Shown: positions 12,887 to 48,708, counted from the first letter of the stretch. The stretch is 64,000 bases of DNA from Synergistales bacterium (GCA_963666205.1 OY762654.1:2464001-2528000); one strand, 5' to 3'. A program made the numbers and translations. The notes: generated from the letters alone by a model not told the origin.

Positions 12887-12926
12887 TCTTGTGTTGGTGC
12901 GTTTTACATAAAGGAGCGATATTAAA

Positions 12927-13859
12927 TTGGGCGATATAAGGGTAGGGACATGTTCCTGGACAGATAGGTCTCTCATTGCCAGCGGGTGGTATCCGGAGAA
13001 TGCCAGGGATGCGTCAGGGAGACTGAAATATTATTCATCCAGTTTCAATGCTGTAGAAGTGGACAGCACCTTTTACGCCATTCCTGATGAAAGCAGGACC
13101 TACAGCTGGATAGCCAGGACCCCTCCCGATTTCAAATTCAATATCAAGGCCTATGGTCTTTTTACCTTCCATTCCGTCAATTTTGCTACTCTCCCTTTGT
13201 GGGTCAGAAAAGAAATCCATATTCAGGATGAAAAAAAGATCAGGTTTTCTGATCTTCCCCGATCCATTCGATTTGAACTCTGGAAAAATTTTGAAAAAGT
13301 TATCCTTCCTCTCCATAAAACAGGAAAAATGGGTTACCTCCTTTTCCAACTTCCTCCCTGGGCTGCATACTCAGAAAGAATGATCCGGTACATGAGAAGA
13401 GTTGCAGAAGTTGCCTCCGATTTCAGGATCGCAGTAGAAATAAGAAATTCATCCTGGTTAGCAGACGGGAACAGAGAACAATTTCTCGACCTGCTCAGGG
13501 AATTCAATATTGCCTACGTCGTGGTTGATGAACCGGAACTTGACTGGACGGTCAGGCCCGAACTCTATATTACTGCGACCTGGGGTTCTGTGGTCAGATT
13601 TCATGGAAGGAACAGCGAAGCATGGTCCCGAAAAGGGGCTGCAGTTCAGGAAAGATTTAAATATCTTTATAATGAGTCGGAACTTATACCCTGGAAAAAT
13701 TCGGTGCTGGATATTTCTTCCCAGGTAGGTACCGTTTATGCAATGTTCAACAACTGTTTCAGGAATTATGCTGTAACTAATGCCACTCAGTTGAAGGGAC
13801 TCCTCGGGTTTGATATTCCTCTGTTAAAAGGTCATCAGAAAGATCTGGGATTAAAGTAA
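12927..13859 (+). CDS. DUF72 domain protein
   Basis: IRVGTCSW, L..Y...F..VEVDSTFY..P, LFQ.PP, AVE.R..SW, VRFHGRN, Y.Y...EL..W, FNN motifs. Confidence 0.92.
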   Translation: MGDIRVGTCSWTDRSLIASGWYPENARDASGRLKYYSSSFNAVEVDSTFYAIPDESRTYSWIARTPPDFKFNIKAYGLFTFHSVNFATLPLWVRKEIHIQDEKKIRFSDLPRSIRFELWKNFEKVILPLHKTGKMGYLLFQLPPWAAYSERMIRYMRRVAEVASDFRIAVEIRNSSWLADGNREQFLDLLREFNIAYVVVDEPELDWTVRPELYITATWGSVVRFHGRNSEAWSRKGAAVQERFKYLYNESELIPWKNSVLDISSQVGTVYAMFNNCFRNYAVTNATQLKGLLGFDIPLLKGHQKDLGLK

Positions 13860-13980
13860 GAAAAGCTTTCCCTAATGCCTGTTTTCGAGTATAATGAAGT
13901 TCTGATATCATTATATCAAGGTGAATAGCTAAAGAGATGAGTATCTTTTCTTTTTCTTAACGTATGAAAGAGGGGAGATT

Positions 13981-17103: not shown

Positions 17104-17880
17104 TTGAATATTTTCACGGTTTTAATCCTTGTTTTATTCCTTTATATGACTGCTTTTTTTATAGTTGCAATGATCAGAAAGGATAATTCTCTGGCTGATA
17201 TAGCCTGGGGCGGGGGTTTTGTGGTCCTTACCATCCTATCCTTTTTTTTCTCTCCCGGAGAAGCAGAGGCAAGGCAGGTCCTTGTAACAGGTCTTGTAAC
17301 AGTCTGGGGAGGGCGTCTGGCACTTCATATTTTACTTAGGAACAGAGGTAAGGGGGAGGATTACCGCTATGCCAAATGGCGCAAGGATTGGGGGAAATCT
17401 TTTGTTCTGAGAAGTTTTCTCCAGGTCTTCATGCTCCAGGGGAGTCTTCTCCTGATTATCGTTTTTTCTCCGGTCTATATTAATCTCAATCCATCACGGG
17501 GTCTTACCTGGTTTGACGGATTAGGACTTCTTGTATGGACTTCCGGTTTTTTCTTTGAAGCTGTTGGAGATTACCAGCTTGGCAAGTTCACGGGGGATCA
17601 GGGCAACAAGGGAAAGGTTATGGATAAGGGTCTCTGGGCTTACACGAGGCATCCGAATTACTTTGGTGAATCGGCCATGTGGTGGGGTATATTCTTCATG
17701 GCTCTCTCCATAGAGGGAGGCTGGATAACTATCGTAAGCCCCATAACAATAACTTTTCTTCTTCTCAAGGTTTCAGGTATACCGATGTTGGAAAAAAAAC
17801 TCATAGAGAATCAAAGGGGATACATTGATTACATGAACAGGACAAGTCCCTTCTTCCCTTGGTTCCCGGGGAAAAAATAA
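17104..17880 (+). CDS. DUF1295 family membrane protein (steroid 5-alpha-reductase-like)
   Basis: D.AWG, WG.RL..H, ED.RY, FE.VGD.QL, GLWAYTRHPNYFGE motifs. TTG start after GGAGGT. Confidence 0.9.
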   Translation: MNIFTVLILVLFLYMTAFFIVAMIRKDNSLADIAWGGGFVVLTILSFFFSPGEAEARQVLVTGLVTVWGGRLALHILLRNRGKGEDYRYAKWRKDWGKSFVLRSFLQVFMLQGSLLLIIVFSPVYINLNPSRGLTWFDGLGLLVWTSGFFFEAVGDYQLGKFTGDQGNKGKVMDKGLWAYTRHPNYFGESAMWWGIFFMALSIEGGWITIVSPITITFLLLKVSGIPMLEKKLIENQRGYIDYMNRTSPFFPWFPGKK

Positions 17881-18917
17881 TGAACCTTTTAACTTCCATT
17901 GCGGAGAGAGGATTTGTACCAGACAGACTTATCAGGTCCGGGATAAGGTGCAGACTGAGAAAAATACTTCAGGATCATGAAATGTTAAACACTGATCATC
18001 CCGATCAGATTGAATCTTTCCTGGATGAAATGGAGAAGGAGTCCATTGCTCCTTCTCCAGAAAAGGCAAATCATCAGCACTACGATCTTCCTCCAGAATT
18101 TTTCAGTTCTTTTCTTGGACAAAGGATGAAATACAGCTGCTGCTTCTGGGGATCCGGAGCCCGAAACCTCAACAGGGCAGAGGATGCTATGCTCGAGCTT
18201 ACATGTAGGAGGGCCGGGATAATAAACGGACAGTCCCTGCTTGATCTGGGGTGCGGATGGGGATCCCTTTCCTTTTATATGGCTGAAAAGTATCCTGATT
18301 CCACGATACTGGCAGTTTCAAATTCAAGGGAACAGGTAGAGTTTGTTCTTCAGGAAACTGCACAAAGGGGTCTGAAAAATCTTGATGCAGTTATTGGAGA
18401 AGTTTCTTCATTCCACCCGAATGAAAGGTTTGATAAAATTATTTCAATAGAGATGTTTGAACACATGAGGAACTGGAAAACCCTTTTTAAGAGGATTGCC
18501 TCCTGGCTTAACCCGAATGGCTTGTTTTTCTGCCATTTTTTTTGTAATTGCAGATATCCCTATTTTTTCAGATCAGAGGAGAAGTCTGAGTGGATGGGGC
18601 ATTATTTTTTCACAGGAGGAATGATGCCGAGTTTTTTCCTTCCGACTTTTTTTCAGGAGGACCTCCATGTTATAAAAAGCTGGAAGGTTAGCGGAAACGA
18701 TTATTCAAAGACCCTTGAAGTCTGGCTCAGGAATCTGGATGATAATAAAGATGTAACCAGATCGATCCTGGAAGGTTACTACGGAAAAAATAGAGTGGAT
18801 CTATGGTTTCAGAGGTGGAGAATATTTCTGCTTGCATGCAGTGAACTTTTTTCTTATAACGAAGGTCAGGAGTGGTATGTTGCCCATTATTTAATGGAAC
18901 ATGCCAGAGAAAGTTAA
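17880..18917 (+). CDS. Class I SAM-dependent methyltransferase, cyclopropane-fatty-acyl-phospholipid synthase-like
   Basis: AN.QHYD.P.EFF, MKYSCC, LDLGCGWGSL, SIEMFEHM.N, FFTGG.MPS motifs. Confidence 0.9.
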   Translation: MNLLTSIAERGFVPDRLIRSGIRCRLRKILQDHEMLNTDHPDQIESFLDEMEKESIAPSPEKANHQHYDLPPEFFSSFLGQRMKYSCCFWGSGARNLNRAEDAMLELTCRRAGIINGQSLLDLGCGWGSLSFYMAEKYPDSTILAVSNSREQVEFVLQETAQRGLKNLDAVIGEVSSFHPNERFDKIISIEMFEHMRNWKTLFKRIASWLNPNGLFFCHFFCNCRYPYFFRSEEKSEWMGHYFFTGGMMPSFFLPTFFQEDLHVIKSWKVSGNDYSKTLEVWLRNLDDNKDVTRSILEGYYGKNRVDLWFQRWRIFLLACSELFSYNEGQEWYVAHYLMEHARES

Positions 18918-18932
18918 CTTTGAGGAGGGCCT

Positions 18933-20720
18933 ATGGGAAAAATAACCCATGTTGACGGAATTCATTTGCGATATGCTTTTCAAGCTGGTACCAGATGTCT
19001 GGGATCAAGCAGAGAGCATCTTAATCTGATCAATGTTTTCCCGGTCCCTGATGGGGATACTGGAACCAATATGTTTTCCACCATGAGTTATATATCCAGC
19101 CATGCTATTTTTTCAAGGTCTTTTTCAAGGACTTTTATTTCTATAGCAGAGACTGCTCTTCTTGGAGCAAGGGGAAATTCAGGGCTCATACTGGCACAAT
19201 ATCTTTATGGCCTGAGCCAGGTCTTTGACGGACATGAAAGGATATCTACAAAGGATTTCGGTCAGGGTGTCATGTTAGCTTTCCCATTCGCCTTACAGGC
19301 TCTTTCAAAACCGGAAGAGGGAACTATCATAACTGTTCTACGGGAATGGAGCCAGGCAGTAGATGAATTAAGCAGGGTTTCCCAGGATTTCATGGATGTT
19401 CTGGATCTTTCCCTTGAAACTGCCCGTCGTTCTTTGTCCCAGACCACAGAAAAACTTAAACCCCTTAAAGATGCAGGAGTTGTAGATGCCGGAGCTCTGG
19501 GTTTTGTCCGTTTTATTCAGGGGATCCTGGAATCAGGTAAAGATCGAACTACTATCTGTTATCCTTCAGATGACGGAACAATATCCCGTAATTACCTGAA
19601 ACATTCCAGCCATGATGAGTCTACTTCCTTCAGATACTGTACGGAAATATTTCTTGAAGGGATTGAAGATCTTCCTGTAGAAAAAATAAGGGAAGATCTT
19701 TCCAGGAAGGGAGATTCTCTTGTTATAAGCGGGGCAGATAAACGTCTGAGAATACATATCCATACAAATGAGCCTTCTGAAATAGCAGTTTCGCTCAAAA
19801 AATGGGGTGATCTGACCCATCAGAAGGTGGATGATATGTACAGACAGCAGAAATCTCTCTTGATCAATAATTCCCGCAATAAAGTAGCACTTCTTACCGA
19901 TTCTGCCTGCGATCTTCCACAGGAGATCCTGGATAGTTATAACATTCATGTTATACCCATGAAACTGACCATAGGTAAGGATGAATATCTGGATAAACTG
20001 ACAATAAAACCGGAACAGGTTTACAGACGGATGAATTCATCCGATGTTTTTCCTGTAAGCTCCATGCCCAGTCAAGGAGAATTTATGGAGATCTATTCGA
20101 AACTACTTGAGATTTACGATTCAGTGATAGCCATCCACCTTTCAGATAAACTGAGTGGAACCTTCAATGCCAGTTATCAGGCTGCATCAGGTCTTGGTAT
20201 GCTTCAAAGGGTCAGTGTCATAAATTCTAGAAATCTATGTGTTTCCCTTGGCCTGATAGTCCTTGAGGCTGCTTCAGCTCTTGGAAATGGTTGCGACCAC
20301 CGAGAAGTTGTCCGCATTGTAAATACCTCACTCGAGAGGGCTTTTATATATGTCAGCCTGGCAGATCTGAAGTACATGGTCCGGGGAGGAAGAATAAGCC
20401 CCATGAAGGGACATATTGCCCGTTTTCTCAACCTGAAACCAGTCATATCGGTCGATAAAGAGGGTAAGGGTATACATTGCGGCAAGGTCTGCGGAAGAAA
20501 TGCTAATCTCTCCAGAATAAGAGATCTATTCATGAGGCATTGGGTAGAGGGCAAAGTATCTCGCTATGCAGTTGTTCATGCAGGTGCAGAGGCGGAAGCA
20601 GCGGAATTCGCAGAAAAATTGTTTGAACTTACAGGAAAAAGAGTAGAGTACATAATGGAGATATCCCCGGTTATAGGTATCAACTCGGGACCAGGCTCAT
20701 TGGCTGTCGGAGGGGTTTAA
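18933..20720 (+). CDS. DAK2 (FakA-like)-DegV (FakB-like) fusion protein
   Basis: LN.INVFPVPDGDTGTN, GARGNSG.I, VVDAG, then TDS.CDLP, SDKLSGT, GGRIS, LKP.I motifs. Confidence 0.9.
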   Translation: MGKITHVDGIHLRYAFQAGTRCLGSSREHLNLINVFPVPDGDTGTNMFSTMSYISSHAIFSRSFSRTFISIAETALLGARGNSGLILAQYLYGLSQVFDGHERISTKDFGQGVMLAFPFALQALSKPEEGTIITVLREWSQAVDELSRVSQDFMDVLDLSLETARRSLSQTTEKLKPLKDAGVVDAGALGFVRFIQGILESGKDRTTICYPSDDGTISRNYLKHSSHDESTSFRYCTEIFLEGIEDLPVEKIREDLSRKGDSLVISGADKRLRIHIHTNEPSEIAVSLKKWGDLTHQKVDDMYRQQKSLLINNSRNKVALLTDSACDLPQEILDSYNIHVIPMKLTIGKDEYLDKLTIKPEQVYRRMNSSDVFPVSSMPSQGEFMEIYSKLLEIYDSVIAIHLSDKLSGTFNASYQAASGLGMLQRVSVINSRNLCVSLGLIVLEAASALGNGCDHREVVRIVNTSLERAFIYVSLADLKYMVRGGRISPMKGHIARFLNLKPVISVDKEGKGIHCGKVCGRNANLSRIRDLFMRHWVEGKVSRYAVVHAGAEAEAAEFAEKLFELTGKRVEYIMEISPVIGINSGPGSLAVGGV

Positions 20721-20888
20721 ACTGATCCTGGTAGTATCTGTCATTGAATGAATCCACACCCGGGAGGGGAATTTCAAGTATTAAGCAGTATGGCGGCGTA
20801 ATACCTGTACAGGCACTGTTTTCCAAGGCCAGTAGTCTATAAATGCCTCTGACCTCAAATATATAGCACTATATACCGAGGGGGTATC

Positions 20889-20917
20889 TTGACACAAATG
20901 TTCTTATGAACTAATAT
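20889..20917 (+). promoter_or_regulatory. Sigma70-type promoter for the candidate ncRNA
   Basis: TTGACA (20889-20894), 17-nt spacer, TAATAT (20912-20917). Confidence 0.7.
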
Positions 20918-20920
20918 ATA

Positions 20921-21325
20921 GATGCCAGGACAAAGAAGGCGAAAGTTCAGTGGAAGTAGTTCTTGGCATTGCCGGGTTATCTGGATTTTTTGCAGTAGAT
21001 CCAATGTACCAGATGTACGGCACAAAGAAACGAAAAGTTGTAAGTTTTACGAGTAGATTGTAGGGTAATCAGGTTAGTGTAAGTGAAGGAGTTGTTAGTT
21101 TGGAGCAACACTTTTCAAACCAGATAACCCGGCCTATTTGCAAAGGAGGGAACCGGAAAATAGGAATAAGATCAGTTCCCGTTACCGAAAAACCGAATAT
21201 GGACATATTGACAGGGTGACGAACCCTGGGAGAGCTGCATAAGGCTCAGAGCAGTCCGTGAGTTAGCCGGGCTTGTCTCAGAAAAACAGATCAGGGAGGG
21301 CGGTTTTTACCGTCCTCCCTTTTAT
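20921..21325 (+). ncRNA. Candidate large structured non-coding RNA (~400 nt), family not recognised
   Basis: Own promoter and terminator; perfect 14-bp long-range helix 20971-20984/21120-21133; 5' helix; possible pseudoknot; several hairpins; no ORF of 60 aa or more in the track. Confidence 0.6.
21293..21324 (+). terminator. Rho-independent terminator (U-tail on + strand; may also serve the convergent usp gene)
   Basis: AGGGAGGGCGGT-tttt-ACCGTCCTCCCT-TTTATT. Confidence 0.85.
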
Positions 21326-21771
21326 TATTTCTTTTCAGGCTGATATACAAGAACTGAGCAGGGAGAATGCCTTACCACTTTTGCTGCTACGCTTCCTATG
21401 AAGAACTGTGACAGATCAGATAATCCCCTGTTTCCTATCAGAATGATCTGATAATTCTCCTTCTCAGCCCTGATTATGATCTCTTCACAGGGTATTCCAT
21501 ATGTTATTATGAAATTGTATGGAGTGGTCAGACCTTCCAAATCCTTAACAGATTCTTCAACAAGAGCAGCAAATTTTTTTCGAAGATCTTCCTCTGTGAG
21601 GGGTGCGGTTTTTCCCTCAGCATCCCATCCATCAACCCTATGTGTCTTTTTCCCCCAGACATGGATAAAATCAAGATGGTCTATATCATTTCGTTCAGCG
21701 TATTTAAATGAATATTTAACCAGAGCTTTACTTGTTTGACTGTAGTCTACTGCAACCAGAGCCTTTTTCAC
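21325..21771 (-). CDS. Universal stress protein (UspA family)
   Basis: KK.LVAVD.S, G.P.EEI, IGNRGLS, F.IGSVA.KVVRHSPCSVLV motifs. Confidence 0.93.
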   Translation of the reverse strand: MKKALVAVDYSQTSKALVKYSFKYAERNDIDHLDFIHVWGKKTHRVDGWDAEGKTAPLTEEDLRKKFAALVEESVKDLEGLTTPYNFIITYGIPCEEIIIRAEKENYQIILIGNRGLSDLSQFFIGSVAAKVVRHSPCSVLVYQPEKK

Positions 21772-22000
21772 AAATATTACCTCCCTCTTTACACTCTACC
21801 TGATTATTATACGACAGTTTATCCAATTCCATTTAAAACTTATTCTTCATGGAAAATAGAAGGTGTTTTTTTGTCTTAAATTCCTCATGACGCCAGACTA
21901 ACGTGGTAATATAGTGTAAAATACATTATAAATAAAGAATTTATTCAAGGGGATTATTTCAGGAACCTTTTCCCAAGCCTTATATGAGAGGTGAATCGAC

Positions 22001-22336
22001 ATGGATAAGATGGATAGAAATGAATTTGAACAGTATTCATTATTACGTAAAAAACTGGAGCTACGTTGTGAGCAGTTATGTCATGTTTATGTAGAGCAAT
22101 ATTATAATCTCGAGAAGGATGACAGGCAGATATTTATTACTAATCTTGAAATTGGGAAAAGCGGACGCATTCTTATCCAGTATGTTGATGGGGATATGGA
22201 GGAAAAACTTTATCTTCCTCCCGAATATCTATGGAGAACCGATGAAGAGGTAAGGGTATTAATGTCCATTGACAAGGAGAAAAAGGAGGTATCTCTCAGA
22301 GAGCATCGAGAAGAGCATCGCAAAAAAGATGATTAA
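22001..22336 (+). CDS. Hypothetical protein
   Basis: 111-aa ORF with strong RBS (GAGGTGA); no recognisable motif. Confidence 0.65.
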   Translation: MDKMDRNEFEQYSLLRKKLELRCEQLCHVYVEQYYNLEKDDRQIFITNLEIGKSGRILIQYVDGDMEEKLYLPPEYLWRTDEEVRVLMSIDKEKKEVSLREHREEHRKKDD

Positions 22337-22384: not shown

Positions 22385-22830
22385 ATGAAAAAAACCAATG
22401 CTGTCAGGTTGGTTGAAAAGCTGGGGATGAATGTTGATGTTTCTGTGTATCCGGTGGGTGATTCGGATCTCAGCGCTGTTAGTGTAGCGGGTAGATCAGG
22501 CATAGCAGGTTAGCGTATTTTTAATACCCTCGTTGTCAGTATTGATAAAGGAGTAATACTTCTTCCCTGTATTCCTGGAGACAGGGAACTGGATCTCAAG
22601 GCCTTTGCCGGGGCAAACGGCAACAAGAATGTGTAAATGGTTCATATGAAAGAGATCCAGGCTCTCACAGGTTGCATTCGTGGAAGAGTTTCACCCCTTG
22701 GTACCAAAAAGGATTACACTTTGTTATAGATCAAAGCATAATGGATCAACCTTCTATAATATGTTGGTGCAGGTAAAAGGGGACTTAAGATGCTTATCGC
22801 TCCTGAGGATCTTCTAAAGGCTTCAATGTG
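22385..22830 (+). pseudogene. ybaK: Degraded Cys-tRNA(Pro) deacylase YbaK/EbsC
   Basis: MKKTNAVR..., IF.TLVV, IPGDRELDLKA, TG.IRG.VSPLG.KK, and VGAGKRGL...APEDL in a shifted frame. In-frame stops TAG 22511 and TAA 22634, plus frameshifts. Confidence 0.88.
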
Positions 22831-22893
22831 AAGGCTTTGTTCGATCGTGTCCAAAAAATAAACTTTTCAATTCGGGTTAGAAAGGGTAAGGGG

Positions 22894-23307
22894 ATGAAAA
22901 ACAATCTGTTTCTTCTTGGAGTTTGCTGCCTGATCTTTTCAGTTACCCGTTGTCACGCAGGTTCTGCTATTCTTGAGGGTGATTTCAGAGAAGTCTTTGT
23001 GAATGAAGAAAATTCATGGTATCTTGATATGGGAAAATTAAAGCCTCTTGTCCTCCCTGAAGGAGAAAATGGATGGGAGGTTTATTTAAAACGTGATTAC
23101 AAAACTGGAGCTGTAACAGAGGTTTATCAGGTTCTCTTCAAGAAAAATCCCCCCTCTTTCAAGCTGCTTGATTCCTATGTGTTTGATATTGATGGAGATC
23201 TAGTGGATCAGTGAAGTATCCAGTCGGATTGGGTCCAGTGGAGACCTGTTGAAAAGGATTCTGTTGAAGAACATGTTTTCCGGATATTGATGGACCTGGA
23301 TCTTTGA
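22894..23307 (+). CDS. Secreted hypothetical protein interrupted by an in-frame TGA at 23212-23214 (pseudogene or readthrough)
   Basis: Signal peptide MKNNLFLLGVCCLIF...; the frame continues for 30 plausible codons after the TGA (SIQSDWVQWRPVEKDSVEEHVFRILMDLDL). Confidence 0.5.
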
Positions 23308-48620: not shown

Positions 48621-48708
48621 TGGCGGAGGGCAGAGGATTCGAACCCCTGAGAGCTTGCACCCTAATTGATTTCAAGTCAACCGCCTTCGACCACTCGGCC
48701 AGCCCTCC
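48621..48708 (-). tRNA. tRNA-Ser (anticodon TGA)
   Basis: Minus strand GGAGGGCTGGCCGAGTGGTCGAAGGCGGTTGACT-TGA-AATCAA...GGTTCGAATCCTCTGCCCTCCGCCA; long variable arm; encoded CCA. Confidence 0.96.

Follow-up and report, generated by a model that had tools for sequence, protein, structure and literature searches.

A probable new family of structured non-coding RNA in an autonomous transcription unit of Synergistales

Introduction

Bacterial RNAs of several hundred nucleotides with a complex fold are few, and where their function has been established they mostly prove to be ribozymes or the cores of ribonucleoproteins. Among the stable ones, 6S RNA and mycobacterial Ms1 sequester RNA polymerase. 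Here we describe a gene-free gap (20721-21324) in a 64,000-nucleotide (nt) stretch of DNA from a Synergistales bacterium (GCA_963666205.1 OY762654.1:2464001-2528000; this whole stretch is called the window, and its coordinates are used below), which, we are highly confident, encodes a member of a real family of structured non-coding RNAs (ncRNAs).

OLE, the raiA motif, ROOL and GOLLD, whose Rfam models were among those scanned, are likewise independent units of several hundred nucleotides, with many covarying helices, conserved unpaired nucleotides, no coding signal, a narrow range and a function that was unknown at discovery. By contrast, the window RNA has no sequence or structure match in Rfam 15, is smaller than OLE, ROOL and GOLLD, resides in Synergistales rather than in Firmicutes or phages and has no conserved partner gene such as oapA beside it. 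It resembles 6S RNA and Ms1 in being apparently stable, probably processed and driven by its own promoter and, within the window's own family (f1), in possessing a long closing helix (P2). However, the interior of P2 is not predicted to form a rod with a central bubble, the copies in a second lineage (genus g24) lack P2, the Rfam 6S model is unmatched at the locus, and a 6S-like candidate lies elsewhere in the genome. Several GGA-containing purine-rich blocks and a weak full-length alignment to the covariance model recall CsrB/RsmZ (RF00018), yet the alignment scores 18 bits against a cut-off of 71, and GGA sites are few and mostly in stems.

Results

A promoter and a terminator enclose a stably folding gap

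The gap lies between a fused fatty-acid-kinase gene and the convergent universal-stress-protein gene usp, and the longest open reading frame (ORF) inside it has at most 56 amino acids (aa). The first-pass annotation had read the gap as a structured ncRNA under its own control, and all the elements it named (promoter, terminator, helices, hairpins and an ORF) are present where it placed them. The features of the RNA and its immediate borders are as follows.

18933-20720, + strand: fused fatty-acid-kinase gene (Dak2, FakA middle domain and DegV), upstream of the gap
20889-20917, + strand: sigma-70-type promoter (-35 TTGACA at 20889-20894, 17-nt spacer, -10 TAATAT at 20912-20917), with 10 of 12 consensus matches
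20942-20953, + strand: block A (AAAGTTCAGTGG), conserved in family f1 only and complementary to block E (candidate helix P1)
20971-20984, + strand: 5' arm of the 14-bp long-range helix P2 (GCCGGGTTATCTGG), from folding and inverted-repeat search
20985-21119, + strand: interior of P2, variable in sequence and in length (135-173 nt in family f1), holding block C
21086-21096, + strand: conserved block C, (A)AGGAGTTGTT, inside the P2 interior
21120-21133, + strand: 3' arm of the 14-bp long-range helix P2 (CCAGATAACCCGGC), from folding and inverted-repeat search
21143-21186, + strand: hairpin P3, in which GGGAAC (21148-21153) pairs with GTTCCC (21175-21180), with an AAAUAG motif in the loop
21143-21150, + strand: block D (AAGGAGGG), the 5' strand of P3, in all nine sequences
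21191-21199, + strand: block E (AACCGAATA in the window; consensus AAYTGAATA(G)), the most conserved strand outside the core hairpins
21212-21228, + strand: hairpin P4 (CAGGGT/ACCCTG), 97.9% of cells paired
21232-21247, + strand: hairpin P5 (GAGCT/GGCTC, loop GCATAA), double changes in four of five pairs
21249-21279, + strand: compound hairpin P6 (helices 5 and 6), double changes in six of eight pairs
21293-21330, + strand: intrinsic terminator, stem 21293-21320 (12 bp, eight G-C pairs) and T-rich tail
21325-21771, - strand: universal-stress-protein gene usp, convergent and downstream of the gap

The promoter, from which transcription is predicted to start near 20924, and the terminator, which adjoins the stop codon of the convergent usp, bear out the autonomy proposed in the first-pass annotation. 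The region holds five promoter-like sites, against 2.7 +/- 1.8 in shuffled sequences. TTGACA is invariant across five aligned sequences of family f1, and the -10 box reads TATCAT in its other genera. A promoter-like site and a terminator are present in each of the nine distinct sequences described below, every homologue ending in a G+C-rich hairpin and a T run of its own sequence. The RNA stretch is single-copy in its own 2.95-Mb genome.

A 408-nt stretch covering the RNA folds at -128 kcal/mol, compared with -103.7 +/- 5.6 kcal/mol for dinucleotide shuffles (z = -4.34), and none of 100 shuffles folded as well. P2 is the longest inverted repeat in the gap, its arms extending to 17 nt at 94% complementarity, and we estimate that, in a 600-nt stretch, chance alone would give about 5e-4 perfect 14-bp inverted repeats whose arms lie within 200 nt. 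Across family f1, block A takes the form AAAGUUCAGUGG and block C the form (C)AAGGAGUUGUU.

Homologues occur in two lineages of Synergistales

A BLAST search among 40 relatives returned a single copy, at 95% identity, in a genome of the same genus (G001). Covariance models were needed because DNA BLAST reached this same-genus copy only; R1 represents the 14-bp-helix domain and R2 and R3 the 3' core, with 168-192 positions each. Over 151 genomes of the order, R1 found full-length copies in all four other genomes of family f1 and in none of 146 genomes from nine other families. When read individually, the loci of family f1 proved to be complete homologous units with TTGACA, a -10 box, a terminator and several common sequence blocks. 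All three genomes of genus g24, in family f3, were matched, with 15-31 bits by R2 and 97-120 bits by R3, and these two models gave no true copy in the other 104 genomes of that family or in a 151-genome sample of the phylum. Weak R3 matches (18-21 bits) in genomes G050, G169 and G070 were counted as false, lying inside genes that read as mazG-like, gntR-like and gatB, and weak R2 matches in G069 and G007 were not reproduced by R3.

Scans of larger collections added one sequence. An exact-motif scan of metagenome contigs gave three stretches that all match R1, two being the same as the copies of genomes G002 and G004 and the third a new variant (L033). The same kind of scan over species-representative genomes gave nine stretches, four of which are true Synergistales copies; the other five, in Pseudomonas, two Rheinheimera and metagenome-assembled genomes labelled Altiarchaeales and Methanosarcinales, are chance occurrences that have neither a model match nor a second arm and lie in apparent coding sequence. 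A second scan of genome contigs, with a pattern spanning blocks D and E, gave 70 stretches, among which two loci, the known copies of G001 and G003, matched the models strongly, and L073 and L084 matched weakly (10.7-12.9 bits). The g24 genomes fit this pattern yet are absent from the output, and the scanned genome-contig collection is therefore not a complete census. In viral contigs, the same pattern returned six stretches, none with a model match. A six-sequence nhmmer profile found no copy beside the 111-aa gene described below in seven loci of other families, and a search with R3 around DUF72 genes, to a distance of 1.5 kb, gave no match in 26 loci of other families.

Homologues thus exist in all four other f1 genomes, one metagenome contig variant and all three g24 genomes. 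In total, nine distinct sequences from four genus-level groups were available, and the family appears, as far as detectable with these models and motifs, to be confined to two lineages of Synergistales.

Compensatory changes preserve a common 3' core on the + strand

All nine sequences share a 3' core that consists of P3, the block E strand, P4, P5 and P6, followed by the terminator, and the four hairpins appear in each sequence folded individually. Across the family, the 5' strand of P3 is AAGGAGGG or AAGGGAAGGGGG and its loop AAAUAG or AAAUAAG, with AUA in nine of nine; block E lies in a strand (A)ACAAYUGAAUAG; P4 follows CAGGGN/NCCCUG, its pair 5 being G-C in six sequences and A-U in two and its pair 6 A-U, G-C or U-A; and P5 and P6 vary in sequence.

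In a core alignment of eight sequences, which was fitted to the model's structure and leans the counts towards that structure, 88.1% of cells pair, compared with 30.5-57.7% when the 3' partners are slid by one to three columns. Both sides have changed in 12 of 24 core pairs (28 cells), the slid controls having 2-8 such pairs (3-12 cells), and the covariation score of 0.44 was reached by none of 500 shuffles. Compensatory changes thus appear to keep the core helices well beyond the controls, the behaviour expected of a structured ncRNA. Given that the alignment leans towards the model and the sequences are few and related, we regard the covariation support for the fold as good but not decisive. 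The core helices hold 22 G.U cells and one A.C cell, and the fold would therefore belong to RNA of the + strand.

The closest pair of sequences behaves accordingly at finer scale. Genome G001 differs from the window at 22 positions in 20889-21335, none of which breaks any of 116 predicted pairs, and six pairs are altered on one side and still paired. Six differences fall in 20889-21169 and about 15 in the 3' third, all of the latter in loops or linkers or preserving a pair. Per base, the spacer upstream of the promoter has diverged more than the 5' two-thirds of the RNA.

The 5' part of the RNA is less widely shared. The 14-bp long-range helix put forward in the first-pass annotation holds within family f1, where none of its 14 pairs is broken in five sequences, one U-A pair having become C-G and two pairs G.U, but it is absent in g24, whose 5' domain is a different stretch of about 110 nt with neither P2 nor block A. 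On these sequences, only the window's own family has the 14-bp helix. Several smaller elements of that annotation narrowed on comparison. The 5' helix 20922-20930/20961-20969 with its GAAA tetraloop is present but restricted to the window's genus. The pairing of GGGAAC with GTTCCC is conserved as the plain hairpin P3 and not as a pseudoknot, since the stem CCTATTT/AAATAGG occurs only in the window's genus; likewise CAGGGT/ACCCTG (P4) and GAGC/GCTC (P5) are conserved hairpins, while TGAG/CTCA is found only in that genus. Two further pairings of block E were considered and not accepted. Helix P1 (GUUCAGU with AYUGAAU), proposed by RNAalifold, is mismatched at its centre in two of six f1 sequences, and g24 has no counterpart of its 5' strand; the alternative, in which block E would pair with the strand joining P2 and P3, uses registers that differ between genera.

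The conserved stretch lacks coding signals

The first-pass annotation had offered a small ORF as an alternative or additional function.

21100-21219, + strand: 39-aa ORF with a TTG start, judged not to be a gene (frame shorter in relatives, no periodicity)

This alternative fails in the relatives. The frame after the TTG spans 39 aa in the window but ends after 22 aa in G003 and after 6 aa in both G004 and G002, and five of the six differences from G001 within it alter the residue. A second candidate, a 44-aa ORF at 20922-21056, has its ATG replaced by CTG in G001, the nearest relative. Substitutions showed no periodicity of three in five close pairs (chi-square 0.19-3.48, 2 degrees of freedom). 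On these comparisons, the RNA is non-coding.

The RNA matches no catalogued family

The gap was compared with the 4227 models of Rfam 15 at gathering thresholds, and matches up to E 10 were also collected in 20700-21400. No family reached its threshold in the gap, in line with the first-pass expectation. At E up to 10, the interval gave nine matches, all far below threshold and most of them on the terminator; the best by E-value was CsrB (18.1 bits, E 0.0074, full model; cut-off 71). Six homologous loci gave no Rfam match at E up to 0.1, and ARAGORN reported no gene in 20000-22000. The first-pass annotation had also set aside RNase P RNA, transfer-messenger RNA (tmRNA), T-boxes and introns, and the Rfam result agrees with it, the housekeeping RNAs being located elsewhere in the genome: RNase P RNA (RF00010) at C1:40229-40575 (308 bits), tmRNA (RF00023), which ARAGORN did not find at the locus, at C1:2723201-2723551 (197.9 bits), and a large signal recognition particle RNA (88 bits). 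The 6S model (RF00013) gave no gap match even at E up to 10. Outside the window, C1:505656-505832 (- strand) aligns to the 6S model over its full length with 36.5 bits, below the cut-off of 46.4, and is probably a divergent 6S RNA of this genome. The sole Rfam match in the 64-kb window is a transfer RNA with a long variable arm at 48624-48708 (- strand, 55.2 bits).

A full-text literature search found no description of this RNA. The only ncRNA survey of Synergistetes that the search found, Stav et al. 2019 (PMC6429828), covers Thermovirga lienii and reports an SLH motif that is unrelated to this RNA; the text available of Brewer et al. 2021 (PMC8632094) adds no Synergistetes genome. Because no lineage gave an Rfam match and no description was found in the literature, the RNA is filed as a new family, absent from Rfam, of the kind of an orphan structured bacterial ncRNA. 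With a fold kept through compensatory changes and no codon periodicity, the first-pass view of an undescribed structured ncRNA is upheld.

Sequences identical to the RNA are present in RNA libraries

Among the 24 public runs listed, 20 hold at least half of the sampled words, and nine runs on record as RNA, from five studies, hold 60-80% of them. Four of the 24 runs, one of DNA and three of RNA (X8, X15 and X17) from three studies, were compared at the level of contigs.

20939-21294, + strand: span covered by contigs of the RNA libraries X8, X15 and X17

The RNA-library contigs match the window with no differences over 20939-21294 (X8), 20940-21236 (X17) and 20971-21287 (X15), and the contigs of the DNA run continue across both ends of this span. 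The X8 contig carries sequencing adapters at both ends. Its read-2 adapter abuts 20939 on the + strand, which would mark the molecule as + strand RNA if the library was a standard stranded one, and its 3' adapter may start past 21287, the position at which the X15 contig likewise stops. Two studies thus agree on the 5' end and two on the 3' end, and these coincident contig ends give a weak hint of a processed + strand form of about 350 nt (about 20939-21287). X8 also contains a variant contig with 12 differences over 21155-21292, meaning that a relative's copy is in the same library. The flanks of the RNA have no cover in X15 and X17 and lower-depth contigs in X8; neither this pattern nor the depth figures were counted as evidence.

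Near-identical words occur in RNA and DNA libraries from marine sediment, microbial mat, wastewater, activated sludge and rhizosphere. One strain at 100% identity across such habitats is odd, and could reflect either a widespread organism or library carry-over.

Neighbouring genes differ between lineages

In genus g1, in G003 (genus g3) and in the metagenome variant, the gene order is fakA/degV, the RNA and convergent usp. In genus g2, a co-oriented 111-aa gene follows the RNA and has its own promoter-like site beyond the terminator. In two g24 genomes, the RNA follows a DUF72 gene and faces a convergent gene for a DsbD-type membrane protein. Upstream DUF72 genes are also present in the window's genome, at a distance of 7 kb, and in G002, at 1.1 kb, but there is none in G052, an RNA-bearing genome, and searches for the 111-aa gene in g24 gave no match; the RNA is therefore not accompanied by any one neighbour throughout. 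The transcription unit is autonomous, its neighbours differing between lineages. The downstream genes being of three unrelated kinds, and convergent in g1, g3 and g24, the first-pass judgement that a cis riboswitch is unlikely also stands.

Some neighbours deserve description in their own right. The 111-aa protein, encoded in the window at 22001-22336 (+ strand), has no Pfam or NCBIfam match, and every family-f1 genome carries its gene a short way downstream of the RNA. Between genera in which FakA/DegV identity is only 47-49%, this protein keeps 72% identity, and among the 151 genomes of the order it occurs in 34 (families f1, f5, f6 and f9), so that, judged by these alignments, it is unusually conserved for a small uncharacterised protein. 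At 17859-20720 (+ strand), a gene resembling cyclopropane-fatty-acid synthase precedes one 595-aa gene in which the ATP-binding part of fatty-acid kinase (Dak2 and FakA middle domain) is fused to a DegV (FakB-like) fatty-acid-binding domain, a FakA-DegV fusion kept across family f1. The DUF72 matches at about 12924-13865 (+ strand) and at G001:C7:561099-562037 both run through one TAA stop, and the Pfam-domain match itself (12990-13796) has no stop; most likely the alignment simply passes the end of the gene. Two further ORFs have no Pfam match, one of 253 aa in G002 (L028 2853-3614, + strand) and one of 128 aa in the window (22828-23214, + strand).

Discussion

Taken as a whole, the explanation that we find somewhat probable is a free-standing, non-coding, structured RNA that acts in trans as a protein-bound stable RNA. 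Transcription would run from its own near-consensus promoter, with a start near 20924, to the intrinsic terminator at 21293-21320, and the accumulating species, probably trimmed and stable, would measure about 350 nt (about 20939-21287). This molecule would be built of two parts, a lineage-specific 5' domain, which in family f1 is the 14-bp helix together with the 135-173 nt of variable sequence that it encloses, and the conserved 3' core. Acting in trans, the stable RNA may be bound by, or may scaffold, one or more proteins, with recognition residing in those stretches of the core that are invariant in sequence (block D, the P3 loop, block E and the P4 stem) and with P5, P6 and the 5' domain supplying shape, in a mode like that of 6S, Y, OLE or raiA-type RNAs rather than by pairing with mRNAs. 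We favour protein binding over a seed-type small RNA because the invariant blocks stand among helices conserved in shape only and the product is probably trimmed and stable; the mechanism itself, protein binding or a ribonucleoprotein, is drawn by analogy and offered tentatively, as a possibility short of probable. A wider reading, which we hold to be doubtful, is that of a new class of processed, stable RNA whose invariant core (AAGGAGGG hairpin, AAYUGAAUAG strand and CAGGG/CCCUG stem) would provide a pocket for specific binding or a centre of catalysis, the 5' domains being add-ons; under this reading the RNA might belong to a ribonucleoprotein, sense a ligand in trans or be an undescribed kind of ribozyme.

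Several observations weigh against the explanation of a protein-bound stable RNA or reduce the force of its evidence. In thermodynamic predictions, block E is moderately accessible, with an unpaired probability of 0.19-0.90, and block D is mostly paired (unpaired probability 0.17-0.32). The window's block E differs from the consensus at two positions, and the block is thus not inviolable. P2 is almost invariant in sequence, and its lone double change would equally suit an inverted repeat in DNA. The covariation comes from nine distinct sequences in four genus-level groups, which amounts to few independent events, counted in an alignment that leans towards the model, and the g24 genomes were missed by a scan whose pattern they fit. 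Contigs give no certain level, start, end or strand, RNA libraries can contain DNA, and matches of 100% identity from very different habitats may be library carry-over. Finally, the proposed mechanism rests on inference.

Some of these observations bear equally on other ways in which such a locus might act. In a base-pairing regulatory small RNA, block E (AAYUGAAUAG) or the purine-rich AAGGAGG blocks would serve as mRNA seeds, and the hairpins would only stabilise the molecule. Its own promoter and Rho-independent terminator, a variable genomic context and, in each of the nine sequences, a short stretch of high conservation beyond the core hairpins all fit such an RNA; however, at 300-450 nt and with at least four covarying helices, the family is far larger and more structured than typical seed-type small RNAs, the predicted accessibility of block E is inconsistent, and the window's copy of that block has two changes, making this account unlikely. 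A decoy for a factor that binds Shine-Dalgarno-like or GGA motifs, either a CsrA sponge of the CsrB/RsmZ kind or a decoy for the 30S subunit, would act through AAGGAG (block C) and AAGGAGGG (block D). CsrB as the best sub-threshold Rfam match, the occurrence of block D in nine of nine sequences and a CsrA gene in the window's genome speak for it, but the CsrB score lies far below its cut-off, CsrA was found in three of five RNA-bearing genomes tested and was not found in G052 (single contig, 99% complete) or G004 (96%), block D is predicted to be mostly paired and the conserved GGA blocks are mostly in stems, and 349 nt hold about ten GGA where composition predicts about eight (a hand count with no formal test), so that we consider a decoy improbable. 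To the same degree we discount a cis-acting sensor, in which the core would be an aptamer controlling its own terminator and read-through would regulate the downstream gene, by antisense or, in g2, directly. The core does look aptamer-like, with helices around conserved unpaired strands and a terminator directly after it in all nine sequences, and g2 has a co-oriented gene downstream; yet the downstream genes are unrelated (convergent usp in g1 and g3, the co-oriented 111-aa gene in g2, a convergent DsbD-type gene in g24), that of g2 has a promoter-like site of its own past the terminator, and no consistent alternative pairing between core and terminator was seen by eye.

Two remaining accounts have very little probability. 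A small-protein gene, either the 39-aa TTG ORF or the 44-aa ATG ORF, could draw on the AAGGAG located 8 nt (21092-21099) before the TTG, an arrangement of AAGGAG, spacer and TTG that is kept in family f1, but the frame shrinks to 6 aa or 22 aa in three f1 relatives, the ATG is CTG in G001, three-base periodicity is missing and g24 lacks block C in this form. An element acting at the level of DNA, with the 14-bp inverted repeats as sites for a recombinase or regulator (an invertible switch or an operator), would explain why the arms are nearly invariant across three genera and why the sole double change keeps both arms alike. By contrast, two positions vary to G.U, a mismatch in DNA, the four runs compared contain no joints or inverted forms, g24 lacks the repeat and keeps the remainder, and the element is single-copy. 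Near matches to the 14-mer arm in the genome (up to two mismatches) number 31 against about 19 expected under uniform composition, a difference that is not meaningful.

The structured RNA of this gap belongs to a rare kind, since bacterial RNAs of several hundred nucleotides that fold in this way and have no known function are few, and earlier examples, OLE, raiA, ROOL, GOLLD and HEARO, reportedly led to unexpected biology. Few members and a narrow distribution limit the reach of the family. It stands in Synergistales, for which almost no RNA biology is on record, and its members include cultured organisms and complete genomes, making experimental study feasible. A model of the family could enter RNA family databases, ending the annotation of such gaps as empty.

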